Shown: positions 17,930 to 41,573 of the stretch, in pieces
Numbering within the stretch: the stretch's first letter is position 1
How the letters are laid out: each line of letters starts with the position of its first letter
Origin: Sphagnum compactum
Lineage: Eukaryota
Direction of reading: 5' to 3'
Length of the DNA: 64,000 nucleotides
NCBI GenBank assembly: GCA_965153455.1
Contig: OZ234494.1
Location: 10,230,001 to 10,294,000 of the forward strand
Notes under the pieces: model-generated
Told to the model about the DNA's origin: nothing
The model's input: the letters and a program-made list of their open reading frames with translations, nothing else
Databases searched by the model: none
Program-made: the position numbers and the translations under genes

Positions 17930-18365
17930 GAAGGAACGTGGAAGAAGTCACGTGAATTGCGCTGCGCTGCTGCTGCGTTTCCAGAGAGACCGAGACTCCA
18001 TCAAACTGAGCGATATCGCGGACTTTGCTTCAATCCATCCTTTGAAACAGCGAGACGCCACGTACGCTTCAACAATTTCCAAGCGACATCCTGCGCAGTT
18101 GGGTGGAAATGGAGATCAGCTGAGAAAAATCAAACTCTTAGAATCTCTGATCGCTGGAGTCTGGACGTTTGATTATAAATACGCCGAGTTGATGCGAAGT
18201 CATTACATATGCATTCTCAGATCCTGTTTGCACGGTGGCATTTGCACCCAACAGAACTTGGCAGTTTATAGTTTACTTATATCTAGTCGCTGCTTAGTGA
18301 TCTGCAGCAGCTTGTCGATCGAGGTTGCAGAATCAGTTGCCGATCCAGCTTTTACCAACGTGGCT
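17930..18365 (+). promoter_or_regulatory. Putative promoter of Rds1-like copy A with ABRE/G-box cluster and TATA box
   Basis: ACGTGG 17936, CACGTG 17949, GCCACGT 18057, TATAAAT 18174 and ACGTGGC 18358. The first ACGTGG and the TATA box are conserved in copy B (33304 and 32822, minus strand). Confidence 0.55.
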
Positions 18366-18419
18366 GACACTCGCAGCTCATCACTTGTTTTGAGATATAT
18401 ATACTACTAATTAGACGAG

Positions 18420-20077
18420 ATGGTGAAGTTGCGAGTTTTGAGTAGTGATCTCCTGCGTGTGTGCGCCGCCCTGGCTATGGTCTTTGTGGTTGTCGTTCAT
18501 GTCGATGGTATGTGAAGAACCAGTTGCACTCTTTTGATTAGTGATGGAGTTGCTATACGTTATTTTTGTGTGTGCAAATAAATCGGTTGCAATAGTTTCG
18601 AGGTGCTCTAGTAGTGCCATTGCATAGCAATCATGGCCTTGTACTGCACCCGTCGAAAACATCTCACCTTCTAAAGCTCGGGAATTTGAGCTAAGGGTCA
18701 ATCACCCAGAAAGCGTGAGATCAAGCCTTGCTGTTCTTGTACAGTATCAGCTGACTCGTGGGTAACCTCAGGTCTGATGGCATTCAGATACTTGTAGCGT
18801 ATGGTGGGCATGCATATATATATTTCCTTCTTGTATAGAAAATTCTACTCGATGCGCATGCTTTTTTTGTACTATAATTGATCCAATGTTTTGTGATCGA
18901 TGTGCAGCGGCCGTTCCCAACTATAATCCATTGCGTGATCCCAGCTTTGGCCCCATCCCTGGGGAAGATCCAAGCTACTCTGATTACCTCGGCGTAGCCC
19001 CACCCTTCCCAGGCAACCTCTCCAGCCCCATCCTCAATACTACGTCTGGTACCCCGGGTCTAGATGACGTCGTCTTCCAGAACTTGCTCAGTGCAGAGTG
19101 GCTGGTGTACAACGTGTATCAGCAAGGCGTGGAGCTCTTCAACGCCAGCGACTTCATCAACGCAGGCTTCCCCAATACTACCTTTGATCGCATCGCTCAA
19201 ATTCGTGACAACGAGGCTGGACATTTACGCGTCTTCCAGGACCAGATTTCCAACGCGTCTGTCGTGCCTGGCCCATGCAAGTGACTGTCTTTTCTATTTG
19301 CAAATTGAACACAGTACGTGAAATTCGTGGAAATGGGAAGTGAATTTAGCTCTGCAGATCAGTAGTTTCTAACACCAATTACCGCAATGTCGTTGCTTCT
19401 GACGACGTAGGTACGATTATGGTCTGACGGGAGACCCGGCACAGTATCTAGCATTTGCCACGTTCGTCGAGCTGACATCCATGGCGTTTGTGAGCGGACT
19501 AACAGAACAGGTAAAACTGAACATCTCCAAGGGCGCACTAGCCGTGATTGGGCAGGCGGAGACACGCCACGAGGTCTGGTTTCTGACAGACATCTGGTGT
19601 TCGCCAAAGTACGGAGGCCTTCCTTTCGCGGGACCTGTCGACACATTCTATCCATACGCAACGCAGATCCTTGACACCACAAACGGCTTCATAGTAGACG
19701 GCTCTTGCCCGCCAGCAAATCCACCGTATCCAATCGGTGCCCAAAACTTGCCTCGACTGACCTACAACACCAACACAACGTCAACGCTGGCACCGGGGAC
19801 GACGATTGAGCTGATTGTAGAGACAAATTCCGGAAGGCAGCTGGCCAAGGCCGACAACTACTACGCCGTGTTCTTCCATGCATTGAACACCTACAGTGTG
19901 CCATTCAACAGCAGCACTGGCATCGTCACCATCCCTGCCCAAATCGAGCCGCTTGGCCTCCTTATGATAGCTATTGCCGACGAGCCTGGCGCTCCCACCG
20001 CGGAGAGTGTCCTCGCTGGTCCGTTACCGATCTTGCAAGCTCCGACTTCCCTGCGACCTTATCTAGTAGGATTGTGA
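18420..20077 (+). CDS. Secreted ferritin-like di-iron protein, fungal Rds1-like (copy A), 375 aa
   Basis: Exons 18420-18507 (signal-peptide-like MVKLRVLSSDLLRVCAALAMVFVVVVHVD), 18908-19280 and 19411-20077. GT-AG introns with consistent phases (1 and 2); 1128 nt open. Ferritin-like ligand pattern NLLSAEW / RDNEAGH / FVELTS / AETRHE. Confidence 0.9.
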
Positions 20078-21944
20078 CGAACTTGGTCGCATGTCCCCTG
20101 GACACTTGGCCGAAGGTAATAGGTACTGCTACTAGGCAGGTAATGCCTAGTACATAGCTACCTATGAAGACCGTCTTTATTAAAATCCGGGCTGCCGTGT
20201 AAGGGAGTTAGTATAAAATTATGATATAGCCTAATTTGCATTTGGTCCCACATTTTGAATGTTCACCAGGTGTTGTGAGAGTGGGCACTGAACTGTTGTT
20301 AGTGAGAAACTCGTTGGTTGGTTATTAGTCTCTGCGAACTTGGAAACCATTCCTCAGATTCATTCTCTCCCAGACCTGTTGTGGTTGCTGGTTTGTGTAG
20401 TTGCCAATAACTTTGTATGGGAAGAGCCATTATTATTATGGCATCATCATTCTAGATATTTGATTGGTTTTCTAGAATTTCTAGGTGCAAGTTTTTAAAG
20501 GCTTGCTCTCAGTTGGCTGGATTTTCCTTTTAATAACCGTGTTAATGAGATTATTATAATTTGGAAGAATGTTCACGAGGAGTCATTTGTGAAATTTTGT
20601 GAGTTCATTTTTGGGACCTTTTTATTGAACCATTTCTTATGTTAACTGTTGCTGTTTGTATCAACGTTGGGAGGGTATACAGTTTGCAATGTTAGCTTGG
20701 GGTTTCAAGGTCAGGTTTTGTGATTTGAATTTGAACTAGCACTTTTTTTTATAAATTGGACATGGTACAAGCATCAAATCATGAATTTTCATTTTATTAG
20801 ATCCAGAACCAAAAACTGGAATTGGAAAAAACATTCTTGAACATAATGTCAAACTGTTCTTTAGGTAAGCAAGTTAAATTTTTTTTAAAAATTAACATGT
20901 GAGCTGAACTTTATATTTCAAAACTTTTGTGGTGCTTTCATTAAATTATGAATTTAATTGGAATCTATCTATGAAATATAATAATTTTTATTTATTTTTT
21001 GGTTGGTTATTGTTTTATAGAATGTCAACATTAAAATCTCCCGTAATGATGATTGGACAATGTTCGGGAGATTGTTGAATTATATTTGAAGATTGTTTTA
21101 AAATGTAGAGATTAAACATGAATGAGCTCTATACACACATACAATATGTTTTTTTTTTTTTGTATTAATATCAAAAGTTATTGTTATATATTCTAAACCA
21201 TCACTAGTTATTGTATCAAAGGAATCTAAGAGCATGTCTATGTCATACATCATCATTAACCCATGACCATCATGGATTGAAATATATGCTTTTGATGAAT
21301 TTATAAATTTGTGCACATTTGTTGATGCATGGTGTATTCTTGTTTCAGTAAGACATAATATGTGAAACATTTGAAGCTTATGATCATAATTAATGTCTGC
21401 ATAATGTTGGTATAAAAAAGTTGTATTCAAGGCTTGTATAATTACATGAAAATTATGAAAAAATTTAAATTGAAAAATTAATGGTATCCAATTTGTAATT
21501 GTTTTCAATCTATTCATTTTTTACATGTACTTTTGGATGCACATAAAAATTTCATGTTGGAGAAGAGCCAACAAAAATAATTTTTCTTTTGTTAAAATGT
21601 GGGATAATGTTTTATATGTTAATTTCTGTTTTTTAACGTTAGTGGGATCGAAAACCAATTCATCTAACGATAATCCTTGAAAACGATTAATGATTTTTAT
21701 TGTTGCAAGTTAAATTGGAAATTGAATCATTGTTATGATAAATGAATGAGATTTACCAACTTTTATATCTTTGATGATATGTTCAATTAGTGTCTATTTT
21801 GATTTAATGTTGTCGTAATAATGACTATATTTTTTTCTTGTTAGTGTTCCAATTTAAAATTTTGAAACATTATCCATATAATGGTTTTTTCACAATATGT
21901 TGTTGATGCTTTAAAAATGCCATCAACTCCATTCACAAGACCAT

Positions 21945-22581
21945 GGACAAGCCCATCCTTGGGTGGTGCCACTAAAAACATCACACCTTGATTTGCCTAA
22001 ACCCATCAAACTTTGAAAAATCATAAAGAACATTTAAATGAACATTTTCATTAATTTTTTTTAATGAATACATTTATTAGGTTCCATCAATTTTGAAAAC
22101 CCAATAATATCAAGCATATCATGTATTTTGATGTTCATAATCATTGCATTTAAAAAACATTTTAAGAACATAGCATTGGTATTTTGGTTAGAAACACAAA
22201 TTTCAAACACAATTTGAAATTTTTCTTATGAATTCTTTTCTTAAGGTAATTTGAAAATCATTTTATTTTTAAGGTTTGATTTGGCAATTAATTGATTAAA
22301 TATGATTTAGTTATGAATTTCCAAATTTGAAATTATCAAAATTTTAAGGGGTTATTTTAATTAAAAATATAAAATTTCAAAATTTTTCAATTTTTTAAAT
22401 TCCCAAATAAACTTCAAACCATATATTAGAGCATGCAATTGATAAACATGAAATAAATAATAATTTATAATTGTGAAAACATTTAACGAAAAAGGCTTAG
22501 AAAAATGATTTGGATGTTTTTAATTCCTTAACCATTTTGTGAGGTGGTTCCTACTGGTACCACCCAAGGATGGGTTCGCCC
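21945..22581. mobile_element. MITE (637 bp) with ~26-bp TIRs and 4-bp TSD, inserted in the Helitron helicase
   Basis: Left end GGACAAGCCCATCCTTGGGTGGTGCC; right end reverse-complemented GGGCGAACCCATCCTTGGGTGGTACC. CCAT is duplicated at 21941-21944 and 22582-22585. Removing the insert restores helicase motif TSDGLVNG. Confidence 0.88.
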
Positions 22582-25500
22582 CCATCAGATGTTGCATAAG
22601 TACCAACACATAATTCAACCAACATACTTTTTTATATATTAATTGTAGAATGCAAACCCATAATTTTACTTAAATCATTTGAAAGTTTGTAAGATGGTGG
22701 GCATGATTGATGGTTGATGTCCATTGCTTTGAAAATAAACATGGGACCTAATGTGTTAGTGATCACATTTTCATTATGTTTTTTCACAAGTTTATTTGTA
22801 TAAAATAAATATTAAATAGTAAAATTGTTGGGTGGTTGTCGATTACAAATTAAATTTATAAGTTCAATATCCTTTGTATTTTCTATTGCAATATGAAATT
22901 TGTCCAAAATTTGTATAAATACCACATTATACTATCACATAATTTTATTTGGTTCATAACATTGGACAATTTTGGTGCTAATGAATTAACATTATCTTTG
23001 ATATTTCGAAAGATCTAAATATCTTTCACAAGGGTGTTTGATAGAAATCATCAATCATGATAACATCAATACCACCAAAGAATTTGTTTTGAATGTGTTT
23101 TATGAACCTTAGCCTAATATCGATAATATTAAACATTCTAACACCAACAAATGATATTTCATTTATCATTTCAAGTTGTTAATGTTCATATCGACATGTA
23201 AACCTATTTAATGAATCTGATGATAAGTTTAGTAAACTAAGTAAAGATTTTTGAATAGGTATGTTCAATGTTAAATGTATTGTTAAACCATCAATATTGA
23301 AGGCACCTTTACCTATTGATGCCATAAGTAAAGCCTTGGTTTTTGTTAAATCAGAATATATGTCTCTATTGTATAATCATAATAATCCTTGAATTATGAA
23401 TTTTACCAATTTGTCAAAAATAAACATATCGGTATTAAGGTACAATTGTTTTATATGCCTAACATCATCAGATATTATTATTTTTTCTTTAAACATTCAA
23501 TTGTTTAAATAAATTACGATATTCAAATTCTTCCATCATCATGGAATATGATGATTTTGTGAAATTTTCATCTTCTAAAAATTGTGATTTTTGGTTTGAT
23601 CCATTACATGATTGAATGACAAAGTTAGATCGTAAATCATAGTGTTCAATATTTTGTGTTTGTTACAAGAATTGTAGGATGTGAATCATTTATTTCATTA
23701 TCTATATCATTAGTCCAAATGTTAGTTGAACGTAATGGTTTTGATTTTGAATTTATTGAATCATCCATTTCTTCTGTATTTGGATATGGCATTTGGTAGT
23801 TGAAAATAGAGTTAGTCTTAGAAATTTCATCATGTTGTTGATAATATGCATCATGCCAAGTTACATTATTTCTAAGTTATATGTTTTTTGAATTTCAAAA
23901 TGGTGAATATAATAAAACTTATTTTTTCGACCAATTTTCAATATCTTTATATTTATTACAATTTACAAACCTGATAATTTTGGGTTTGCGATGTTTTGAA
24001 ATCCTTTTTTTTTAGTATAAAAAAATGGAAATTTTGCTAATGACAAAGATTCATATTGATAAGACAATTAATATATTTATTTATGATCAATGAACATATT
24101 ATATTAGTTGGATTTGGTTCCAATTCATTTAATGCAACTTGTGATTTTAACACAAAATCACAGTCTTCAAAAGCACAAGTATTTATGAATTGAAATGTTT
24201 GAGATGAATGATATGATGGTAAAAAAACACAAGGTAAACAACAAGTTGAGCAATCATTTGTTGAATTTTTGTATTTGCATCTATATTATTTGTGATGTAA
24301 TTTTTTATGATAGAATGTAATTTTGATGTTATTGATTTATTTATTTTTATCATATACGATGTGCAATATGTTATAACTACATACGAGTCCAAGATAAATT
24401 AAATATCTATATTTGCAAACCACAAATGAGCAACACGTATACTACATGCATTAGTTTTTATGTTTTTAAGCATTGTTTTAAAGAAAATATGTGACTTTGT
24501 TAACTTAATTTTCAAACTTAATTTATATATGTACTTTCATCAAGGTTTTTAAAATTTAGATTTTCACAATATGATATATCATCATTTCAAAAAAAAAAAA
24601 TTTAAACATTGAAATATTTTGTTTACTTGTGTATGGAAGTATTGTTGTGAAAATGGATAATTTCCATTTATTTGAAGAAGGTTTTAAATTATTTTTTTTC
24701 ACGCATAAGAGGTAATGGATAATGAAATCTACAAACATGGTTTTTTTCTTACATATACATGTGTGTTGATGTTGTTGTGCATTTTGTGAAGCGTTGGTAA
24801 TAATGATAAATCACAAGAAATACACATACAAACCATTCAAGTTCTTCATTTGTGTATGCTCCATACATAGGTGCATTTTTTATCCATAAAACTCCATGGT
24901 CATGTTCACTCCCACGATTTTGGAATTCCATGATGAAAAAAAATTAGAAATATATATCCAAAAAGAAAATTAATTTTTGTGATAAGTTTGCAAAAATAAG
25001 ATGTTTTATGGTTGTAACATATTACACATGTGACAAGGTCAATTCATGACAATTATGTTATATGAATAGATTGGAGGTCTTTTATTTTATTTGGGAGATT
25101 TAATTTTGAAGCATGTAATGTGTGTAAAGTTTTAATGAGAGGATCCCACAATCCTTCAGCAGTTGTAAACGTGACAAATAATGTTGGAACATTGAATTGT
25201 TGAATCATTGCAAATAAATTTTTTGTGACCTTTCAAAATAATCAGGTGAATTACGCAATCCTTTCAAATCACAATAACCTAAATATGATTTGAAGATATT
25301 ATCTAAATTTTATTTATTTCATATTTGATAAGCTTATAAAATTTTACCACATAGTTTTCTTTTTTCTGTATTCACACCCAACTAAAACCTATGATTTTTT
25401 GGATGGAAACTTTAGTAGCTTTAAAAAAAACTAGAAATATTTATTGAAAAATCTCCAAATTTATGAAATAATTCCCATTGAACTATTTGTTGATATGAAA

Positions 25501-27309
25501 AACCTTTAAAAATTTATTGAAGTTGCCCATAAAACAATGTTGGAAAATTTTGTTCTAGTGAATGTTTATCTTTAAATAGACTGAAAAGTTTGACTTGACG
25601 CAATATAATATATAGTATTCTCATAATCTATTATTTTCTTAGCATCTAGAAACTTATGTATCATTAAATCTATTAGTGTACAATGTATTTTCATTATCTA
25701 TATCAGAATTATCAGATGATGCATTATTATAAGTAGGAATTTGAAATTTTGAATTCATATACAAAACAAACAAACATGCCCATTGATGATGAATGGTAAC
25801 ATTCAAATATTTGTATAATGGTGTTTCAATTAAATATCATAAAACGACCATCACCATACTTAGATGTACATTTCTTGACATATAAAATGATTTGTATTCA
25901 AGATGTTGTTTAAGAAACATACCTATTGTTGCATCTCATGTGATAAACGTGGTAGCATTGATGGAGTTTGATCCACATTTGCAAAGATATCAATAACACT
26001 ATTATGCATCTTATATTGCTTATACTTTTGGTGAAATAAAATGTTCTTTTAATTATGTTAATTTTTGAATTAATGGAATGATTTTGTTTTTAAAAAAATT
26101 ATTTAGTATTTAATATAAGGGTGGTTTTTTTCATTGATATTATATAAACAACTTGTACATATGTATGATGTTGAATTAGGTTCTATTTGAATTTGAAAAT
26201 ATATAGAAAGTTGTCTTGATAATTAATTCGAAAAACATTTAAGTTGTTTTAAAAACATAACCTTTCACAATTAAAACATGGAATTATGGGAACATCTTGG
26301 ATTTTGGGATGTTTTAAAACTTTGGTAAGGGAAATTGAAATGAATGGATTAGACAAAATTTTATTGATAAAAACATTTGTGTTATTTTTCAAAAACAATT
26401 TAAGTATTGATTATGATTTGTAATTATTTTTAATAATATTTGTATTATAAAAATTGTTGAATAATGAAACAACATATTCCAATGGTGAATCCCAATTATC
26501 TTTCAAAATGTCCATTAATGCATAATCAAATTTTTCATTCCAATAAAAACATGTAGTTAGTTTTGATAATTGGATTGAAGGTTATTGCACCACTGATTCC
26601 AAAAGAGATGAAAAATCATCTAAATCTATGGTACTTTAACTTGAAAAGTATGCAAAGACCTAAATAGACCATTAACATATTGAATTGGTTCAAAATGTTG
26701 AGAACTATATGTTATATGTAAAGGGATAGATTGAAAATCCATGCCACATCAAAACATAATATGTTCGGATACTTTATTCCAAAGGTAAATTAACCTTGGT
26801 AAATATTCAGCTATCCAAAATATTGGAGTGAAATCTTTCCACAAAACCTCCCATACTAACACTTAATGCCATTTTTGTCACATATTGATGTTCATTTGTG
26901 ACCATGCCTTGATGTAAATTAAACAAAAAACTTGGATTTAATTCTCAAATATGACATTGTTGGGTTTTTCTATATTCAATAATAAACATTGATTTGAATG
27001 TGTCATGTTATTTTACCTCAACTCAAGAAATGAGAAATGATTATCCAATAAATAAGACATAAAATTTAAAAAATAATTACCTCTTTCATATTTGTATGTT
27101 AAAACTAGATGAAGGCCATATGAATGCAATGCATATTCAAGTGATGAATCAACAATATTTAATAAAGGTGTTTCCATTATTATGAACTTCAATTTAATAG
27201 GTATCTATATAAACAAAAGCATGGTTCCCACATAAACACATTCAAAAATAAATAAATCAACGATTCATTTAAGATTATTTACTTTTAATTTTTTTTGGGA
27301 AAACTCATT

Positions 27310-27730
27310 GCATTGAAAAATTCTTTATATTGGAATATTACTTAGATGGAAAAAATTGCTTGACTTGTAAATTGCAAGCATTGAAAAAAAAATCTCAAAA
27401 ATATTTGTATTAAAAATTTTCATGCACTAAAAATAAATTCATTAAAAATTATTTTCATTGAAAAACTACTTACATTGAAAAATTATTTGCATTAAAAAAC
27501 TACTTATATTGGAAAATTATTTGTGTTCAAAAACTCCTTTCATTGAAAAAACTACTTACATTGAAAAAATATTTTCATTGAAAAAATTGCTTGCATTAAA
27601 AAACTGCTTTCATTGAAAAAATTGTTCCCATTGAAAAACTTTTTCCGTTGAAAAAATTGCTCACATTGAAAAATTGCTTTCATTGAAAAAACTATTTCCA
27701 TTGAAAAATTGTTTTCATTGAAGAAATTGA
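27310..27730. repeat. Degenerate minisatellite (~19-bp unit, cattgaaaaa..tt.cttt) in the Helitron 5' region
   Basis: Periodic cattgaaaaa motif throughout the interval. Confidence 0.8.
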
Positions 27731-29254
27731 AATCAAACTTGTGTTTCACACTATGTTGAACATTATTAGTAGGAATAATTACCAAAGGAGTAATCAAACC
27801 TTCACCTTTCAAATTGGTTTCCACTTGTGGGATAAATTGTTGGATGTTTTCTTGAAAGCCAACAAGGGCAGGTGTGGTCGATGATTGAAATTTACCATGA
27901 ATTTGAATTGAAATGAAAAGTTGAACTTGTTTTGGACAAGGCAAATCCAAGAATTCAGATTTTTTCATATGCACAATTACTTCAAGCCATTTGCCCTCAA
28001 TAGTTAGTAACATAGATTAATTATTGGTTGTAATGGAACCACAAAGAAAGCCTAATTTTTGAACCATTAATCTTGAATGATAAGCGTTACAATGAACACC
28101 ACCCATTGGAAAAATGATTACATCTACTACATGACAACTTCCACATGTTTTTTGAAATGGAGGCACAATAGGGCTAGCTATGAACAACATTTTGGCCCCC
28201 TAAAAAAAAAAACAATATGTTCAAACAAAAAGGTAAATGAAGATGAACATAAACATAAAGAAAATGTGAAAAAAAAAAAATCAATCAAGAAATAAACAAA
28301 ACCATGCACACACATACACATAAATGTAAACAAAAAGAATGAAATGCATAATAAGTGCATAATAAAAGATGTTGTGGAAATGTAATAATTTAAAAACTTA
28401 ATACGTCAAGAAAAAAAAAAACAAGATAAAAAATTAATAACAACAAAAGAAATATTAAAAAAAAGGTCATTCAAGCATGAAAATAAAACATTATACCCCC
28501 TTCTTTCAAACCATATATCTCTTTCGTTTTTTACTCATTTTAAGTGATATAAAAAACTATGGTATGAAATTTAAAACTCTACAAATGATCTTTCAAATGT
28601 AAAATCATTAAACCAACGTATGTATATCTTAAGCTTTAAAACAAAAATTATTTTTTGTGTGTTTAAACCTCACATTTTCATCCCTTTCACTTCCATAACC
28701 CATATCTTGATCATCTTTTAATCAGTTCTAGTGATTTTTGTACCATTAAATGCACCAAAAAAGGGGTTACAAAATCTTTTCAATGTTCAAAGGCTATTGA
28801 CCAATGTGGAAAAATTATAAAACTTTATTTACAAAGGTTTTCCACATACTTGTTTACCTTACCATATTAAAATTACACTATGTTTTTCATTGAACAAACA
28901 CACTCCAAACATTTTATCCCATACTCTTCACCCAAAAAGGAATTCCATTGGACTATATATAGACAACTTTTTCACTACTAATACCAACATTGTACTCTAT
29001 GTCTAGTATGCAATGGAACATGAATTTTTGTTCTTTAAACCATTCTAGTAAAGAAAAGTCATCCCAATGTAATTATATTTTCTATAAGCCATTTTAGTAT
29101 AGAAAATTATGTGGCCGCCTGGTTCTCCCCTTTTCAAGAAGGGAAAAATCAAATGTTGCAATTTTGTTTTTTTTCTTTTATGTTAAATTTAGTTCGCCAT
29201 TTGAATCTCCTTACTATCCAAGTGGGAAAGAAAATGTTTGACCGTGTTACGAGA

Positions 29255-30145
29255 AACCATCTAATGGCCACCAATTGGTTTTTTTCTCTGCCTAAAAACC
29301 ATTTGGTGGCCATTAGGTCATTTTTTTTTCGTTTAGAGACCATTTGGTGGCCACTAGGTCATTTTTTTTTCGTTTAGAGACCATTTGGTGGCCACTAGGT
29401 CATTTTTTTTTCGTTTAGAGACCATTTGGTGGCCACTAGGTGTTTTCGACACTAAATTACGACAAATGACTTGGTGATCACTAAATCATTTTTTTTTGAC
29501 TTAGAGGCTTGGTGGCCACTAAGTTTTTTTGACGTTGAACTACAAATGATGACTTAGTGGCCACCAAGCCCTTTTTTTTTCTTTTTATGCTTGAAGACCT
29601 AGTGGCCATTAGGTTGTTTATTTGTTTTTCACTTAGAGACCACTTGGTGGCTACCATGTTTTTTTTTCACTTGGCCACTCGATGGCCAATAGGTTGTTTC
29701 AACATTAACTGCGAGGGACCACCTGGTGGTCACAAAGTTGTTTTTTTTGTTTGTTTGGATACCTAGTTGCCAATAGGTCATGTTGACGTTGGATTGCAAG
29801 GGACCAACTGTGGCCACTAGGTTGTTTTAATCCTGGATTACAAAGGACCATTTGGTGACCACCAGGGATTTATTTTTTTTCGCCTTAAAACCACATGGTG
29901 GCCACCAAGTTGTTTCGACACTTAACTACGAAGGACCACTTAATGGCCACTAGGTGTCTTTTGTGTTTCTTGGAAACCACTTGGTGGCCACCAAGTGGTT
30001 TCAACCTAGACTATTAAGGATCACCTAGTGACCAGCAGGTGGTTTCAACCTAGACTACTAGGGATCACCTAGTGGCCACTAAGTGGTATTGATCTTGGAT
30101 TACTAGGGGGACTACCAGTAAACACTTGGTCACCACCAGGTGGTT
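29255..30145. repeat. Array of palindromic (T/G)GTGGCCAC(T/C)A-type motifs at ~40-bp spacing
   Basis: Roughly twenty copies of tggtggccacta/ggtggccacc, including three near-exact ~41-bp units at ~29300-29440. Probably a transposon subterminal array. Confidence 0.8.
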
Positions 30146-30929
30146 TCCATCTTGATTTGCTAGGGCCCACCTAATGAATTTTTTTCTTAATTTTTTTCAA
30201 ATATTTGGAAAAAAAAGTTCCAATAGATGATATGTCTTCATATTTATGTAATTCTTTCTTGGTTTGGTTTACATGTTTTAAACTTGCATATTAATGTGTA
30301 TGATGTGTTTGATGCATGTTTTGAATAATTATGAAATATTAATTTATAACCAATGCCATGTTCAACTCCAATTATATCACCATCAACTTTAAACTCATCA
30401 ACATGCCACTAAGGTAGTTACAATAAGAAGAACTTACCGGTGAACACATGCCATAGTGGATAATGAAAATAATTTCACATATTGCCTACCCTATTGACAT
30501 TGTTAGATTTTTAAAGCTAATTTGCTTTTGATTTGTGTACAATATTTTAAGGAACTCTGTAGCCAATAGGCATAAATGTGATGACACTCTCCAAAAAATC
30601 AGTTTTCTGTTCCTTGCAGGCTTGTTTTTAAAAGAAAAAGGGAATTATAACAAAATATTCCATTTTCAGAATACTGTGTCGCCTTTTCACGATTTTTTTG
30701 GCCAAAAAAAATCCTTGGTGAACACTGGATAGCCAGACCAAATCAAAACATATTAGCTATGTACTCTCTCCCTCCGAGAGCAGGTCAATATTCCAGTGGT
30801 CGATCCTAATAAGGAGCTAGGTAAGCATTAACTTGGTGTTGGCAATATGTAGCTAGGTAGTACCTACTCCCTTCCTAGTGGTACCTACTGCCTAGGGCCA
30901 AGCGTCAAGAGGCCACTCCACCAACTTCC

Positions 30930-32580
30930 TCACAACCCTATCAGATATGGTCCAAGGGAAGTCGGAGCTTGCAAGATCGGTAACGGACCAGCGAGGACGC
31001 TCTCCGCGGTGGGAGCGCCGGGTTCGTCGGCAATGGCAATCAGAAGAAGGCCAAGCGGCTCGATTTGGGCAGGGATGGTGACGATGCCAGTGCTGGTGTT
31101 GAATGGCACACTGTAGATGTTCAATGCATGGAAGAACACGGCGTAGTAGTTGTCGGCCTTGGCCAGCTGCCTTCCGGAATTTGTCTCTACAATCAGCTCA
31201 ATCGTCGTCCCCGGTGCCAGCGTTGACGTTGTGTTGGTGTTGTAGGTCAGTCGAGGCAAGTTTTGGGCACCGATTGGATACGGTGGATTTGCTGGCGGGC
31301 AAGAGCCGTCTACTATGAAGCCGTTTGTGGTGTCAAGGATCTGCGTTGCGTATGGATAGAATGTGTCGACAGGTCCCGCGAAAGGAAGGCCTCCGTACTT
31401 TGGCGAACCCCAGATGTCTGTCAGAAACCAGACCTCGTGGCGTGTCTCCGACTGCCCAATCACTGCTATTGCGCCCTTGGAGATGTTCAGTTTTACCTGT
31501 TCTGTTAGTCCGCTCACAAACGCCATGGACGTTAGCTCGACGAACGTGGCAAATGCTAGATACTGTGCCGGGTCTCCCGTCAGACCATAATCGTACCTAC
31601 GTCGTCAGAAGCAACGACATTGCGGTAATTGATGTTAGAAACTACTGATCTGCAGAGCTATATTCACTTCCCATTTCCACGAATTTCACGTACTGTGTTC
31701 AATTTGCAAATAGAAAAGACAGTCACTTGCATGGGCCAGGCACGACAGACGCGTTGGAAATCTGGTCCTGGAAGACGCGTAAATGTCCAGCCTCGTTGTC
31801 ACGAATTTGAGCGATGCGATCAAAGGTAGTATTGGGGAAGCCTGCGTTGATGAAGTCGCTGGCGTTGAAGAGCTCCACGCCTTGCTGATACACGTTGTAC
31901 ACCAGCCACTCTGCACTGAGCAAGTTCTGGAAGACGACGTCATCTAGACCCGGGGTACCAGACGTAGTATTGAGGATGGGGCTGGAGAGGTTGCCTGGGA
32001 AGGGTGGGGCTACGCCGAGGTAATCTGAATAGATTGGATCTTCGCCAGGGATGGGACCAAAGCTGGGATCACGCAATGGATTATAGTTGGGAACGGCCGC
32101 TGCACATCGATCACAAAACATGGGCTCAATTATAGTATACAACAAGCAAGCGCATCGAATAGAATTTTCTATACAAGAAGGACATATATATGCATGCCCA
32201 CCATCGGTAAAGCCCTTCAATACAAGTATCTGAATGCCATCGCACCCGAGCTGGTTGGCGGCAAGTCAGACGATACTGCATAAGAAGACCAAAGACTGAC
32301 CACACGCTTTCGGGTTCATTGACTCTTAGGTCAAGTTGATCATGTGTTAATTTTCATGGGTACAATAGGCCGTGAATGCTATGCAATGGCAGTACTAGAG
32401 CAACTCGGTCCAATACTGCAACGAATTTATTAATTTCACATATGCAGTAAGTTCATCAGTAATCCAAAGAGTGCAGCGGGTTCTTCACATACCATTGACA
32501 TGAACGATAGCCACAAGGACCATAGCCAGGGCGGCGCATACACGCAAAAGATCACTACTCAAAACTCGCGACTTCATCAT
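30930..32580 (-). CDS. Secreted ferritin-like di-iron protein, fungal Rds1-like (copy B), 375 aa
   Basis: Exons 32580-32493 (MMKSRVLSSDLLRVCAALAMVLVAIVHVN), 32099-31727 and 31596-30930. Exon lengths equal copy A (88/373/667), the frame is intact and all putative metal ligands are kept. Confidence 0.9.
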
Positions 32581-35500
32581 CTCGTCTAATTAGTAGTATA
32601 TAGCTCCAAACAAATGATGAGCTGTGATTGTCAGTTAAGTAATTGGTAAAAGCTGGATCGACAGCTGATTCTGCGACCCCTATCGACAAGCTGTTGCAGA
32701 TCGCTAGCTACAGCGCCTCTACTTTATATAATTCTGCTATAAACTGCCAAGTTTGTGCAAAACTCAATCACTGCAAATGTGACTTAGAATACAGATGAAA
32801 CGAATTCGGTTCAAGTCGGCCTATTTATACCCAGCAGTCCTATCAGTGTGGATTGATCATGAGCTCCCTTTCCACTCTGCTGCACCGGATGCCACTTGGA
32901 AATTTTTGGAGCTCAAATACGCGCCGTCTTGCTATTTCAAAGAATGGATTTCTAAGTCCTCGACAGCGCGAACTCTGAAGGAGGTGGTCTCTATGATACG
33001 TACCCGGCGAGGGCCCAGAATAGATAGTACCAGAGCCCCCGGGTGCGGGGTATGGGACACGCCAGAGGGTAAAGGTATAAGGTTAAACCAACCAGCGACG
33101 AGGAACGTGCAATAAGTGAGTCGGGACGTACGCGATTGTCAGCAATGTAATGTAATATAACTGGAGAGCTCTTGTGCAACGGCATGGAGGTATGTAGTAT
33201 GGAGCCCCAGCGACTCCACCGAGGCATGCCACGTTAGCAAGAAGCTGGGTACAGTCCACTATGGAAACGCAGCAGCAGCGCAACGCTATCCATGTGACTT
33301 CTTCCACGTTCCTTCCTTCCTTCCTTCCTCATGGACAGCGAGATTTTGGCAAGGTGACAAAATAACAAAGTCACTCTAGGACCATCTCCAGTGTCCATAT
33401 AAAGTGTTACAAGTGACGATTGATTTCAGACACTTACGTCTTATGTTAGGCACATAAGGTAAAGCGCTAGAGCGCAAGATAAGGGGTACATATGAACAAG
33501 GCCCACATTTGTAGAATGTTCTCCACTAGTGGGCCTTTCCCATCCTGTGCATTACTCACTGTAAAGGATGAGCTCATCTTTATCCATACTTGGTCAAACC
33601 ACCAATTGATATTACAGTTGGGTTGGTTATAGTAAATAATAGCATATACTCAACAATGATTCCCAATAAGGTTCAAAATAGAGCCCTGGTTTAGTTCTTG
33701 GTTTTGAAGATAACCTTTGGTCTAGTTCTGGCTAGGATCTTCTTCATTTGGGTTAGGGAACTGGAGGTTGTGGTTGAACTATTTTAATTTGATGGATCCT
33801 TGGGTGTAGGCAGCGATGCAATTCTTCAACAAAATTCAGTCAGTTTTGGTCATAAAAATGATTTCAATAAATTATGGTCTGATTTGAAACCTATTTTGTT
33901 TGTACCTTAACTACACATAACCCCAAGATTAAAAATTGTGTAACATGAGTTAAATTTGACCAGGCATGAGTGAAAAATACATCCTACTTCTCGAGGAAAA
34001 GGAAAAAAAAGCATCAATTGTTTGCTAAAGAAACATAATCTATGTAAGGAGGACTCCAGCATTAACCGAGTTGGGGTTCTAGTTTGGTTGTAGGTTTGGT
34101 CTGTAGTCTGATTCCAACAGAGGTTGGACCACAATCCAGCTCAGTTGCAATTACAACAGGAAAATAATATGTTCAAATCCAATTGCTTGGAACTGGATCA
34201 CAATCCAGACTAGGAACCAAGCTACAACTTGGAATTGACCAACATTGGTCCACTGACATGAGCTATCCATGTCAAATAGCCCATGTCAAAGTCTTTTCTT
34301 AACACAAAACAGTGTTCACAAAATTTCACATTTGATTAGTTCTCAAGATTAGGCACACAAAAATAGGTCCATTGCAACCATGATATATGTAGTGAGACCA
34401 TGGTATATACATTGGTATTGAGTGAAATACCAATTGCGTTAGAGTGAAAGAGGTTCGCAATAAGAGTGTTGCTAGGCTGTGCCTTCGTCAGGTTTGTTGT
34501 AATCGCACTGGGTGTTGGACTCATTTGTTTAGTTGGAATTGAAGACATCCTTGTTGTGTTCTCTCACACAAATGTCAAATCCATTATTGCAGAAGAACCT
34601 TGATCACAAACCTCAACAATGTAAAGAAAACTAAAGAAGGTCACCTCACCACACTTAATGCAACACAGCTTCCTTGTGAGCAAAACCTTAGCTTACCTAT
34701 GTACCCAAACAATTAGTGTTGAAAACAATCAGTGATAGTACATAAGAACATGAAAATTGCAATCCTCAAACCCTAGACCTACTTCATTTGTAGTGCAATG
34801 CCTGCAAAAACCAAGAATGTCCTCAAAACTCCCATCCGCCTATTTTTTGAAAATATTTGAAAAGTGTCTCTTTGCATTTCCCTCCTCATTTGTAGATTTA
34901 CTGTTCGTGCTCACAGCAAAACAAGTAATTGCAACTTACAGCAAAACACGAAAGTTCTCTATCAACGGCAGAACAAGGAAACTCTTGGTCGATGAAAAAA
35001 CATGTAAAATTTCCGTTGACAACAGGTGGTCGACAGTGATTGAGATGTTTTACGAACGGCAATGAGAGGGGCTCGCATGTGTGACATGGAAGGCCGGTGG
35101 TGGGGCATTGCAACCTGGAACAAGCGTTGGACAGAGCTCGATGGGGGGGGTATTTAGAGTCTCGTTGAGTAACACCAAGGTTATTTTAATCTCAATACTA
35201 AACATATAGTATATACCTGCCACAGATCCGCCAAAAATCAGCTTTGAACCTTAATACTAGGACTAGCATGGTATGAAAAGTTGTTTATAAAACCCATACC
35301 AGTAACAGGCTGCTATATATATATTTTTAAAATCGAATACCAGTACTGAGAAGCTATGAATTTGATTCCAGTTCCTATTAGTATGTTCAAAAGTCCATAC
35401 CCACCCAACACTGGTTATCAGGGCAAAGAATTAACATATACCTTAGTCCCATCATAGTGGGGCAAGGATCAACTAATGGTAAATTGAACTACCACTTGCA

Positions 35501-38500: not shown

Positions 38501-39763
38501 CCTTGCATGGGGCTGGACTCTGCCTCACATGAGGCCTTCATTCAGGGAATGCCCCACTCCTGGGGCCTCATACTACACATTTTGAAAAGATAGGGATACC
38601 CTCAACCTATGTTAATATTAAAAAACGACTTGCACAAGCTGGGTTCCTGCCTCACAGGGGGCTTGGCTGCTACACCTCACTTGGTGTCTGGCTTTTAGGA
38701 ATGCCCCACACTTGGGACTCACCTCACACTTTCAAAAGACGGGGTCGCTCTGAATCCATGTTATGTGTATGGTAAAGCCCAAGGGTAAGGGCGGTCCCAA
38801 AGTATGAGGCCTAAGACAATAAAGTTATCGGTAAAGTCAGGCGAAGACGGCACCAGAAGCCCCTGTTTGGTCACATAGGGGACGAGATTTCAAAAAACAG
38901 GAAAGAAAAGTACACTGGGCTTCAACAGGGCATGAAACTCAGTTTAGCAGCAAATTTGGTACTAAACTGAGTTTGCCCTGTCCTTTCTTTTCCTGAACGA
39001 GCTGAACCAATCAGTTTCTGCTGCTATGCGTACTGTAGCTACAAATGTTCTCGAGCCTGGTGCATTTAATCCTGAGTCTCAGTATTTCATACTCTTATTT
39101 CATAAAATTTCATGACTTTGCGGACAACAGCCAGGAGGGGATGAAGCATCAAACGAGGGGTGCAACTCAGGCCCAACAGGGCATGACTCTATTGATAATT
39201 CTAACGTGGCAGCTCAGTCTGCCCCCTAGTTTGGGAATGTCCCGGTTCAAAAGATGACTTGCAAAACATAATTAGACCAGTTGGCAATTCTTTTTTAAAA
39301 CCCTAACCCTAATCTTAATCAATTGGAAAGCACCAGCAGAAACTTTCTAGGTTAACTTGGGCACCTTATACAACAGAATTTCTCTTTGACAAAGGGAGGG
39401 TCAGTTTGGAAAGCAAAGGGGGCATTTCGTTGTATAGTCTTTTTGTCCTGTGATATCAGAAGATACCCAGAATTGTGAGGGGTAATGGCCTCTGCTGAAG
39501 CATTATCAGAACAAGGGCCCACGCTAGGCAGGCCCCATTAAAGTAATGCCCACAGCTGAGGGCATTACAAGGCATTAAAAATTTTGACAAATCATTTTCA
39601 TTTTTATTTTTTTACCATGATACCCAGAAGGTGCCTGCTGGGTAACGGGCAGCTTTCCCCAAATAAACGGGCCGCTCCGAGGGCGTTACCCTGAACCCTA
39701 TTCTAACCCTAATGAAGGGAATTGGTTTTGTCGGAGTTTTGTTTCCTCTCGACATTGGCGTCC

Positions 39764-41573
39764 ATGGCTGCTTCTTTGCCCAGCAGGCGGCCGTTGCCAA
39801 TCGGCAGCAGGCCGGTGGATCTGGTGCTTGCTGTGTTTATGCTCATCAACATACCGATAGTGCTGCTGGTGGAGTCCCAGGCGGTTTTTCCGTCCGTCTT
39901 CTTCCCGCAGTCGTTGCTGGACGCCGTGCAATGGTACGTGCACCTGTCCGGAGACTACTTGGTGCGGGACAAACCTCCATTCTTCCGAGGTCTGGTTCTC
40001 GCCGAGCTGGTGTTTCAGCTGCCGCTTCTAGTCGTCAACTCCTACGCATTCATTGCCGGTGCGTCTACCTATCAGTCTATAACTCTGTCTCCTGGTGTCG
40101 ATCTTATTGTGATGCACGGTGGTGAGCTCAGGTGATTTTCTCTTCGGGCTGTTCATCTCTCTTGTTTGTGACAAAAATTGCATAGCATGCAGTGGGAAAG
40201 TAAGGATCGAAATTCCCAGGGAGGGCTAATCTCGCGTTTTTGTGAGATTGGGCTGCAAGATGACCGAAAGAGCTTTGCAGGAAAACATGATTTGGTAGAT
40301 ATTCTCATAAACACTAAGTTTCTGTGGCATATCCAGCTCAGAAATAGAGAGGAAAAATTGCCTTCCTCACAATGTAGGACTTGCGGAAGCCTGCAAATTC
40401 ATGTATTGAAACAACCACCCAAGAATTTGCAGCAAACTATGATTTGGTGGACCTTTGTGTACACCCTAAGTTTCTCTGGCATTTTCAGCTCAGTAACAGC
40501 GAGAAAACGTGGCTTTCTTGCAATGTAAGACTTGCAGATGCTTGCAAATTCATGTATTGGAGCAACCACCCAAGAATTTCAGCTTTGCAGGAAAACATGA
40601 TTTGATAGACATTTGTGTAAACCCTAAGTTTCTGTCGCATGTTTGGCTCAGGAACAGAGAGAAACGTTGGCTTTCTCAGAATGTAGGACTTGCAGATGCT
40701 TGCAAGGTCATGTATGGGAGCAACCACCCAGGAATTTCAGCTTTGCAGGAAAACATGATTTGGTAGATATTTGTGTAAACCCTAAGTTTCTGTGGCATTC
40801 AGCTCAAGGACAGAGAGAAACATTGGCTTTCTCACAATGTAGGACTTGCAGATTCATGTACCGGATCAACCACCCAAGAATTGAAGATTTGATGGTCTAT
40901 ACAGAACCTGGGTGGTATGTCAGAGGCTAGTCTGTTTGGTTATCACACATGCCAAGTACTTGGTTGCTGTTTTTATGATTTAGTTACTCTCTTGTTGCAA
41001 TGTAAGCAGTGCTGAGAACTCAGTTCAACTACCATGAGAGAGTGTAAGTGGTTGGTTTTGATATACACAAAGTAAGAGACAGCCTTTTCTATGCATGAGC
41101 AAAATACAAAATACTGCTTTGTCTACCTCCTGGAGGTGAAGATCAAGTGTGTCATGTGGGGTTTGCATGTGCAGGTAAGGGCTGGGGCCGGATAACAGGC
41201 ATCTTATTAGGAGCACAACTGTTCACAACAATGGTATGCACTGGTTTTCTCGCCTTTTCAAGCACTCCTTGTCAGGACTTTGGAAATGTTTTGAGTTTCA
41301 TCTTGGGTGGAAGGGAGGGTAATGGAGGTGTAATTAGTGTGTAGCTATAATTAGTGTGTAGCTAATATGCTTCAGGTTAAGTGTTGTTGGAGTGGGGTGT
41401 AGGTTCCTATATTTGCAGATCTTCTGGCAACAAATATTCCAACACGCAATCTATTGCTTGGGATCTATTTGCCCTACGTTATCATGCCGGTCATCATACT
41501 AGCGCGACTCATTCCATCAGAACACCCATTTTCAGAACCTGCTGACAGCTTGAATGGAAAGAAAGGAGATTGA
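39764..41573 (+). CDS. TMEM97: TMEM97 / sigma-2-receptor-like EXPERA-domain membrane protein, 174 aa
   Basis: Exons 39764-40058, 41175-41233 and 41403-41573 (GT-AG, phases 1 and 0). Four hydrophobic segments; motifs WYVHLSGDYLV, PPFFRGLVLAELVFQLP and IYLPY; C-terminal KKxx ER-retrieval signal (KKGD*). Confidence 0.9.
40270..40882. repeat. Intronic tandem repeat, ~158-bp unit x~4, in TMEM97-like intron 1
   Basis: gctttgcaggaaaacatgattt.g.aga.att...aaccctaagtttct.tggcat...aatgtaggacttgc...caaccacccaagaatt at ~40272, ~40428, 40582 and 40740. Confidence 0.9.

Follow-up and report, generated by a model that had tools for sequence, protein, structure and literature searches.

How does a gene of fungal type come to stand, in two copies, in the genome of a peat moss, and what does its product do there? 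The question is raised by a 64,000-nucleotide stretch of Sphagnum compactum DNA (contig OZ234494.1, positions 10,230,001 to 10,294,000; hereafter the window), which holds two closely similar genes, copy A and copy B, for proteins of the Rds1 type. The Rds1 protein of Schizosaccharomyces pombe is the founding member of the fungal Rds1 proteins. Much of the carbon in the world's soils lies in peatlands, which Sphagnum builds, and the genes of its stress and nutrient biology therefore matter. An earlier note, made from the letters of the window alone, took the pair for a horizontally acquired, domesticated and duplicated extracellular system for metal binding or redox stress. Here we follow up that proposal computationally, and put at roughly 0.72 the probability of a reading in which an ascomycete RDS1 gene was transferred to the moss, gained introns, was duplicated and came to encode a secretory-pathway hydrolase with a two-metal site.

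Two spliced genes in Sphagnum DNA

Each copy comprises three exons that join into an intact 1128-nt coding sequence (CDS) for a 375-residue product. The two CDSs differ at 35 nt, that is, by 20 synonymous and 15 non-synonymous codon differences (15 amino acids), and over the whole gene, introns included, the window copies are 93.0% identical. They lie convergent (tail to tail) as the arms of an inverted repeat, with 1316 nt matching at 96% and a further 157 nt at 90%. The genes are richer in GC than their surroundings, as the earlier note had remarked: the CDS has 55% GC (62% at third codon positions), the introns 41-42% and the spacer between the copies 25-27%.

Four public runs (X1, X2, X9 and X22) were compared with positions 18200-20400, that is, with copy A. 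RNA contigs, which yield neither expression level nor strand, cross the first intron in two of the four runs (X1 and X2; junction 18506/7 to 18907/8, 400 nt skipped) and the second in three (X1, X2 and X9; junction 19280 to 19411, 130 nt skipped), in each case with GT..AG borders and exactly as modelled. The two complete spliced genes of 375 codons read by the earlier note are confirmed by translation, by GT..AG introns and, in the RNA check of copy A, by these junctions. In X2, a field metatranscriptome, the k-mer depth of the gene is 250-860. The polyA RNA sequencing run X22, of which about 12% was read as raw reads, gave just four matching reads, not enough to reveal junctions, so expression varies from sample to sample. 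RNA contigs that retain intron 1 (window 18505-18920) also occur in X2 and X9, shallower than the spliced form (32 versus 250 in X2), and could reflect intron retention, pre-mRNA or DNA carry-over.

The 90% cluster of a full-length Sphagnum orthologue, P0001, contains annotated proteins of S. magellanicum, S. fallax, S. jensenii and S. troendelagicum, which are encoded on contigs of 30-36 Mb and carry the labels 'hypothetical' or 'unnamed'. Five named 375-residue Sphagnum members were compared with the window copies, and none is identical to them, with 14-21 residues differing. A scan of metagenome contigs with the homologue alignment yielded 26 loci, 10 of Sphagnum type (L001-L008, L023 and L025) and 16 fungal-like. 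The ten Sphagnum-type loci, independently assembled, bear the flanks of the window besides the gene: A-type loci align to the window from about 15.9 kb to 20.9 kb and B-type loci from 34.4 kb down to 27.7 kb. On one 109-kb contig L004 and L023 stand convergent, as in the window, about 14 kb apart. A tree of whole-gene DNA from 11 copies separates an A-type group (window A and L004-L008) from a B-type group (window B, L001-L003 and L023), each supported at 100; the A/B duplication is therefore older than the divergence of these Sphagnum lineages.

The Sphagnum copies are under purifying selection, with a ratio of non-synonymous to synonymous substitution rates (dN/dS) of 0.23-0.44 in six of the seven pairs computed and 0.71 in the seventh (L004/L023). 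An intact 1128-nt open reading frame (ORF) with GT..AG at both introns is kept by 10 of the 11 copies. The A-type locus L008 (L008:1446-3086), whose CDS shows a gap of 19 nt and a broken reading frame, is either a pseudogene in its lineage or an assembly error. The CDSs of L004 and L023 show a dS of 0.022, against 0.076 between the window copies, yet the whole-gene trees place them in different orthogroups, a pattern suggestive of gene conversion, in that lineage, between its convergent copies.

Intron positions were then compared with those of fungal-type genes, a check that the earlier note had proposed. In all 16 fungal-like loci, the tblastn match runs as a single uninterrupted segment across the site of Sphagnum intron 2; eight of these loci lie on contigs of 17-140 kb and are hence genomic. 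The intron 1 site is likewise unbroken in the five fungal-like loci whose match extends to the N-terminus. Judged from these alignments, both introns were most likely gained in the plant lineage.

Fungal contamination or a chimeric assembly would explain why the CDS stands above its surroundings in GC, but we regard it as practically excluded because of the introns, the shared flanks, the purifying selection and the two orthogroups older than the Sphagnum splits. The two introns are of plant size and find no counterpart in the 16 fungal-like loci, the same flanks recur in ten independently assembled contigs, annotated orthologues sit on multi-megabase contigs of four Sphagnum species, both paralogue lineages occur in other Sphagnum contigs, and the sequence diverges by 44-54% from every fungal protein found. 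On this point, and in calling the genes domesticated and duplicated, the earlier note was right.

Fungal relatives and the proposed route into mosses

A search with exon 3 returned five Sphagnum-type proteins at 84-94% identity and then directly dropped to 50% or less; it also returned one liverwort protein, from Calypogeia fissa. Full-length searches were made from P0001 (best 120 of 530 proteins at an expect value, E, of 1e-3 or below) and from the Calypogeia protein (best 120 of 615). An organism is named for 45 of the best 120 P0001 matches, namely 3 Sphagnum and 42 fungi (41 Pezizomycotina and 1 Basidiobolus). The fungal proteins are 46-56% identical to P0001 over 85-98% of the query, and many are titled 'Protein rds1' or 'stress response protein rds1p'. 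Apart from the Calypogeia and Ceratodon homologues described below, the closest non-Sphagnum relatives with an organism name, among the matches listed, are fungal Rds1 proteins; neither PCC13-62, the plant desiccation-related type, nor Deinococcus DRB0118 occurs with an organism name among the matches listed from the exon 3, P0001 and HMMER searches. The preference of the earlier note for a fungal Rds1-type protein over PCC13-62 was thus well placed, and the immunoglobulin (Ig)-like domain described below bears it out (PMC11616004).

An exhaustive HMMER search of 1.84 billion representatives gave 302 matches at E of 1e-3 or below. Twenty distant matches (23-40% identity) were looked up, and the 11 that carry an organism name are all fungi (Dothistroma, Acaromyces, Neolentinus, Auriculariales, Rhodocollybia, Pseudohyphozyma, Clavulina, Phellinidium, Lentinula, Umbelopsis and Thoreauomyces), spanning Ascomycota, Basidiomycota, Mucoromycota and Chytridiomycota. 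To the named members of the last three phyla the moss protein is 23-32% identical. Viewed from the Sphagnum query, the family appears pan-fungal and the distance from the moss protein to Pezizomycotina, by these identities, much smaller than that between Pezizomycotina and other fungal phyla, a pattern that fits transfer out of Ascomycota and not an ancient vertical gene.

We then placed the proteins in a tree of 87 hand-picked rows: the two window proteins, three other Sphagnum or Sphagnum-like proteins, three from Calypogeia, one from Ceratodon, 51 from named Pezizomycotina, one from Basidiobolus, 22 unnamed proteins and an outgroup of three Basidiomycota and one Mucoromycota. The Acaromyces and Dothistroma proteins were removed after a first tree owing to very long branches (4.67 and 1.72, respectively). 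In a careful maximum-likelihood tree (LG+C20+F+G4 by posterior mean site frequencies, PMSF; log-likelihood, lnL, -31069.0), all plant rows and all Pezizomycotina stand together across a 100/100 branch, 2.66+2.66 long, from Basidiomycota and Mucoromycota. Sphagnum contributes five rows, which group at 100/100 on a long stem (1.06 changes per site) and fall inside a 70-row clade (98/86) that excludes Chaetothyriales and a 51-row clade (95/94) that excludes Sordariomycetes. In approximately unbiased (AU) tests, whose p-values are weakened because the groups were named after the first tree had been seen, keeping the 51 named Pezizomycotina as one group, apart from all plants and the outgroup, cost 13.1 lnL units and was rejected (p-AU 0.0045).

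An ancient eukaryotic gene retained in fungi and a few bryophytes and lost elsewhere, or else a transfer from plant to fungus, would accord with the occurrence of the Pfam family PF13668 overall in bacteria, plants, animals and fungi (PMC11616004). Both are very improbable given the gap between the 46-56% identity to Pezizomycotina and the 23-32% to other phyla, the position of the moss protein on the Pezizomycotina side of the 100/100 branch, the rejection of plants as a whole set outside Pezizomycotina, and the breadth of the family across fungal phyla, which points to fungi as the source. On sequence evidence, a fungal (ascomycete) origin appears secure for the whole set of bryophyte genes and, where those of Sphagnum are concerned, very likely, with the nesting of Sphagnum specifically inside Pezizomycotina borderline.

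Several points weigh against this origin of the Sphagnum genes. Forcing only Sphagnum out of the named Pezizomycotina cost 3.3 lnL units (p-AU 0.053), and the long Sphagnum stem makes its placement fragile. The rows were chosen by hand and include no Taphrinomycotina, Saccharomycotina or early Pezizomycotina, and the distribution in vascular plants and algae was judged only from the best 120 of 530 and the best 120 of 615 matches. On a quick tree AU tests rejected nothing, and constrained trees scored above the free tree; the quick search was therefore suboptimal, and we relied on the careful tree. The fungus-to-moss transfer proposed by the earlier note is accordingly supported for the plant rows as a set, whose exclusion from Pezizomycotina is rejected, while for Sphagnum taken alone the nesting inside Pezizomycotina is borderline.

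Judged by sequence, RDS1 is not confined to Sphagnum, as Ceratodon and Calypogeia carry homologues. The Calypogeia query recovered two more Calypogeia paralogues (the three lie on contigs of 7-20 Mb), a protein of the moss Ceratodon purpureus that is encoded on an 18 Mb contig and shares 67% identity with the query, and nine unnamed proteins at 62-72% identity, which from their tree position we guess to be of bryophyte origin. Acquisition of fungal RDS1 by liverworts has been published (PMC12513842, 2025). No paper in the literature searched links RDS1 with Sphagnum; the main text of PMC12513842 names liverworts only, and its supplements may or may not include Sphagnum. The gene is no novelty of Sphagnum, in view of the published liverwort acquisition and of these homologues on multi-megabase contigs.

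These homologues raise the choice between one ancient acquisition and several. In the careful tree the other bryophytes, together with the nine unnamed proteins, form a 100/98 clade that is split into a liverwort-containing and a moss-containing subgroup and is sister to Basidiobolus (100/95). They sit in a 96/92 clade with Leotiomycetes and Lecanoromycetes, and Sphagnum lies outside that clade. The topology and bootstraps favour a reading, just short of an even chance in our estimation, in which Sphagnum took RDS1 from a moss-associated ascomycete, separately from the acquisition in liverworts and Bryopsida, so that bryophytes would have captured the gene repeatedly. Plants form one clade in 0 of 200 bootstrap trees, and constraining all nine plant rows to do so cost 8.65 lnL units. 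In a comparison with 14 fungi, Sphagnum and the other bryophytes have at no alignment position a residue in common that is rare among those fungi; against this stand 18 changes private to Sphagnum, at positions where the other bryophytes carry the residue of most fungi. Sphagnum is also no nearer to Calypogeia and Ceratodon (46-51% identity) than to fungi (47-53%). A Sphagnum-specific insertion and the Pezizomycotina-like copy in Basidiobolus, which suggests that the gene moves, point the same way.

The same AU test gave p 0.081 and so does not reject plants as one clade, the placement of the long Sphagnum branch is fragile, and the tree singles out no donor lineage. These features leave a good minority share of probability to a single fungus-to-bryophyte transfer before mosses and liverworts parted, after which the gene would have descended vertically, with losses and with fast evolution on the Sphagnum stem, and under which the window genes would be the Sphagnum orthologues of the RDS1 already reported for liverworts. 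The shared 100/98 clade of Calypogeia and Ceratodon is in keeping with it, as is the quick tree, in which the constrained topology scored 4.97 lnL units above the free search, and the long stem makes a misplacement of Sphagnum plausible. Weighing the topology, bootstraps, residues and identities against these, we lean slightly to a separate Sphagnum event.

The insertion (KYGGL, copy A residues 220-224; window positions 19607-19621) falls in the loop that follows the fourth ligand helix, where the model is less confident (block mean 63), and none of the aligned homologues from fungi or other bryophytes has it. Two oddities concern fungal rows. The Rds1 protein of the zoopagomycete Basidiobolus ranarum (P0157) lies deep inside the Pezizomycotina radiation, which indicates a transfer into Basidiobolus or a mislabelled contig. 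Proteins of Exophiala viscosa (P0109) and Elasticomyces elasticus (P0160), labelled as different fungal classes, are nearly identical (100/100, branches 0.07 and 0.10), which points to a labelling problem or a recent transfer.

In the history that we propose, an ascomycete RDS1 of Pezizomycotina type would have been acquired by horizontal transfer before the sampled Sphagnum lineages split. Two spliceosomal introns would have been added later, the first at the boundary of the signal peptide and the second within the ferritin-like domain, at K154|Y155, and the unit of about 2 kb would have been duplicated into a convergent pair, both copies being kept by purifying selection and transcribed. The evolutionary interpretation of the earlier note is thus largely right, although not new in kind. 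The pair is a well-documented case of a fungal gene turned ordinary plant gene, with introns, duplication, purifying selection and transcription, and it extends the published liverwort transfer to peat mosses, possibly as a second, independent event.

A two-domain protein and its candidate activity

Residues 85-211 of P0001 match Pfam PF13668 (Ferritin_2) at 56.1 bits (cut-off 24.7; E 5.6e-15), and exon 2 alone of each window copy does so at about 37 bits (E 5e-9 for copy A and 5.2e-9 for copy B); the C-terminal 160 residues match no Pfam family. An AlphaFold2 model built on a 45-sequence alignment, a check that the earlier note had suggested, reached a mean predicted local distance difference test score (pLDDT) of 86.8 and a predicted template-modelling score (pTM) of 0.84. 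It places helices at residues 83-106, 121-141, 163-187 and 191-215, a further helix, and then a seven-stranded beta-sandwich across residues 270-363. In this model the protein is a ferritin-like four-helix bundle joined to an Ig-like beta-sandwich. Foldseek comparison with the PDB returned RvY_06210 (RvFeMP-1; entries 8KCE, 8WAI and 8W9K) as all six top matches (E 1e-11 to 2e-10; TM score 0.77-0.80 on the target), with about 290 aligned columns that cover both domains, and a sequence search also matched 8kce (E 3.4e-7). Bacterioferritins and the manganese catalase KatB followed at E 0.04-0.2, over the bundle only.

Both copies carry the ligand set E93 / E132-x-x-H135 / E174 / E204-x-x-H207 seen by the earlier note, and each of its six positions is either invariant or conserved to 90% or more in an alignment of 45 homologues. 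E93, E132 and H135 align to Glu51, Glu90 and His93, the M1 ligands of RvFeMP-1; E174 and E204 align to its Glu132 and Asp162, and Ser177 stands in place of Asp135. C153 and C253, invariant in the 45 sequences, align with Cys112 and Cys202, which form the interdomain disulfide of RvFeMP-1 (PMC11616004), and by this alignment a C153-C253 disulfide probably ties the two domains together.

Several features bear on the route of the protein through the cell. Each protein has eight N-x-S/T sequons, where shuffled sequences have 2.5 +/- 1.45 and only 8 of 5000 shuffles reach eight, so that the many sequons noticed earlier are a real excess; two of them, N66 and N119, are each retained by 20 of the 23 homologues aligned. 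This excess and conservation fit passage through the secretory pathway. Exon 1 (residues 1-29) starts with MVKLR and has a basic n-region, a hydrophobic core and V-x-A before AVP, and reads as a putative signal peptide. Secretion and glycosylation, the identity of the metals, catalytic activity and a physiological role in stress or phosphate economy are what we infer from these and the following comparisons.

RvFeMP-1 has been described as a two-domain protein, ferritin-like plus IgG-like, with a dinuclear Zn/Mg site and a phosphatase activity that is weak and broad, extending to nucleotides and sugar phosphates; that report gives phosphatase activity for RvFeMP-1, RvFeMP-2 and DRB0118 only (PMC11616004). 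By analogy with RvFeMP-1 and DRB0118, the Sphagnum protein may be a metal-dependent hydrolase or phosphatase, an assignment to which we give near-even, though not quite even, odds. The product would be an N-glycosylated secretory-pathway protein in which a two-metal site (E93, E132, H135 / E174, E204, H207) is combined with the Ig-like sandwich, and it may act as a broad-specificity metal-dependent phosphatase on metabolites or organic phosphates in the endoplasmic reticulum (ER), the apoplast or the cell wall.

Here too there are points on the other side. The symmetric E/ExxH/E/ExxH pattern is the classic motif of di-iron and di-manganese carboxylate proteins, and the ligand set differs from that of RvFeMP-1 (E/ExxH/ExxD/D), with serine in Sphagnum at the Asp135 position. 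The reported phosphatase activities fall short of those of known metabolite phosphatases by 1-2 orders of magnitude, S. pombe Rds1 has been reported to reside in the ER, and an RvFeMP-1-GFP fusion was not secreted in HEK293T cells (PMC11616004). The last two reports speak against the extracellular location that the earlier note had assumed.

The symmetric ligand set, conserved as described, and the ranking of bacterioferritins and KatB directly after RvFeMP-1 would suit an enzyme with two iron or two manganese ions (a ferroxidase, an oxidase or a catalase-like enzyme), or a stress protein that binds metal, and not a phosphatase. We consider this unlikely, although well worth keeping in view: those structural matches are weak and confined to the bundle, the only assayed PF13668 members are Zn/Mg hydrolases as PMC11616004 reports them, and no redox partner or iron-related gene adjoins the pair in the window, as judged by Pfam tests of flanking ORFs. 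The remaining weight goes to an activity of some kind not yet described. The di-iron or redox system of the earlier note is this same functional interpretation and is unproven; among close relatives, the one protein both solved and assayed acts as a Zn/Mg metabolite phosphatase (PMC11616004), so that by analogy the nearest biochemical precedent points elsewhere.

Returning to the hydrolase reading, we link it to phosphate economy only because S. pombe rds1 responds to starvation for phosphate, glucose and ammonium (report cited in PMC11616004). A fuller and rather doubtful version combines a separate Sphagnum capture, within repeated uptake of RDS1 by bryophytes and Basidiobolus, with an apoplastic organic-phosphate hydrolase, made from the duplicated and highly transcribed pair, that would aid the phosphorus economy of the moss or its survival of stress in bogs that are acid and poor in nutrients. 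The match in structure to a characterised phosphatase supplies a testable activity for the uncharacterised Rds1 family and corrects its default "iron/ferritin" annotation.

Surrounding DNA and comparison with known systems

The coordinates of the two genes, of the duplicated unit and of the features between the copies are collected in Table 1.

Table 1. Features of the gene pair and its spacer, in window coordinates
Feature	Positions	Strand	Basis or remark
Copy A, Rds1-like gene, A-type orthogroup	18420-20077	+	ATG to stop, 375-aa translation, GT..AG introns
Copy A exons	18420-18507, 18908-19280, 19411-20077	+	sequence reading and translation
Copy A introns	18508-18907 (400 nt, phase 1), 19281-19410 (130 nt, phase 2)	+	GT..AG
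Copy A 5' untranslated region, at least 220 nt	18200-18419	+	X2 RNA contig unbroken from 18200 (edge of the stretch compared) to 18506
Copy A metal-ligand codons	E93 19096-98, E132 19213-15, H135 19222-24	+	sequence reading
Copy A metal-ligand codons	E174 19469-71, E204 19559-61, H207 19568-70	+	sequence reading
Copy B, Rds1-like gene, B-type orthogroup	30930-32580	-	375-aa translation, GT..AG introns
Copy B exons	32580-32493, 32099-31727, 31596-30930	-	translation
Copy B introns	32492-32100 (393 nt, phase 1), 31726-31597 (130 nt, phase 2)	-	GT..AG
Duplicated unit, arm A (about 245 bp 5' of ATG, gene, about 55 bp past stop)	18174-20131	+	inverted-repeat arms; megablast of the B-type loci L023/L025
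Duplicated unit, arm B	30876-32829	-	inverted-repeat arms; megablast of L023/L025
Spacer between convergent copies, 10.7 kb, AT-rich (about 25-27% GC over 21-29 kb)	20132-30875	.	composition
Helitron_like_N fragment	25056-25232	-	Pfam E 2.7e-5, below curated cut-off
PIF1 fragments	23029-23178, 23182-23376	-	Pfam E 1e-4 and 8e-3, below curated cut-offs
Tandem arrays, units 17/35, 41/83 and 44 nt	27438-27728, 29298-29580, 29984-30087	.	just downstream of copy B

Between the copies, positions 21000-28100 (minus strand) hold stop-ridden, decayed remnants of Helitrons (Helitron_like_N and PIF1 helicase), and the DNA there has about 25% GC; a Helitron may have taken part in the inverted duplication or may have been inserted later. 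Part of the tandem-repeat region, from 27.7 to 29.9 kb, is common to the window and the B-type loci L023, L001 and L003. In the flank, an exon-sized ORF at 39716-40132 (plus strand) has an EXPERA/EBP domain (PF05241, E 1.7e-6), and it alone among the ten flanking ORFs tested matches Pfam above the curated cut-off. A look-up of the EXPERA exon returned mixed clusters of Ascomycota and Streptophyta and is uninformative on a plant origin of the flank. Rfam gave no match within the 64-kb window. The earlier note had set the pair among plant genes: the shared flanks and the Sphagnum chromosomes uphold that setting as a whole, though not gene by gene, since most long flanking ORFs are without a Pfam match.

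By model and sequence, the Sphagnum protein has the Rds1-type 'clade 1' fold (bundle plus Ig-like domain) and the matching ligands (Glu, Glu and His, with an acidic M2). Two other assignments were rejected. Its C-terminal beta-sandwich rules out the PCC13-62 or DRP type ('clade 2'), and a canonical ferritin or bacterioferritin is set aside by the weak bundle-only matches (E 0.04-0.2, query TM about 0.3), the extra domain and the putative signal sequence. PCC13-62 and Deinococcus DRB0118 do share with the moss protein the Pfam family PF13668, an N-terminal signal peptide (putative in the moss protein) and a link to stress; in the description of PMC11616004 they are set apart as 'clade 2', and they do not have the Ig-like domain.

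The nearest solved structure, RvFeMP-1 of the tardigrade Ramazzottius varieornatus, shares the two-domain fold, the M1 ligands Glu/Glu/His and the cysteines of the interdomain disulfide. It is 23-24% identical to the Sphagnum protein and differs at M2, where Sphagnum has Ser177 for Asp135 and Glu204 for Asp162. S. pombe Rds1, by the description in PMC11616004, has threonine at the position equivalent to E174.

The homologues of Calypogeia and Ceratodon, like the liverwort RDS1 genes of PMC12513842, represent the same fungal family in bryophyte nuclear genomes, and those of Calypogeia and Ceratodon have the same domain content by Pfam (PF13668). They are only 46-51% identical to the Sphagnum protein and keep to their own 100/98 clade, without Sphagnum. 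The Rds1 proteins of Pezizomycotina fall in the same length class (350-375 residues) as the Sphagnum protein and share 46-56% identity over nearly the full length. Their parts follow the same order, with a signal-like N-terminus, PF13668 and a C-terminal beta domain, and they have the same six ligand positions, the two invariant cysteines and several common sequons. The Sphagnum genes differ from them in standing as a convergent pair in a moss nuclear genome, in two introns that have no fungal-like counterpart, and in a private stem of 1.06, 18 private substitutions and the insertion at residues 220-224.

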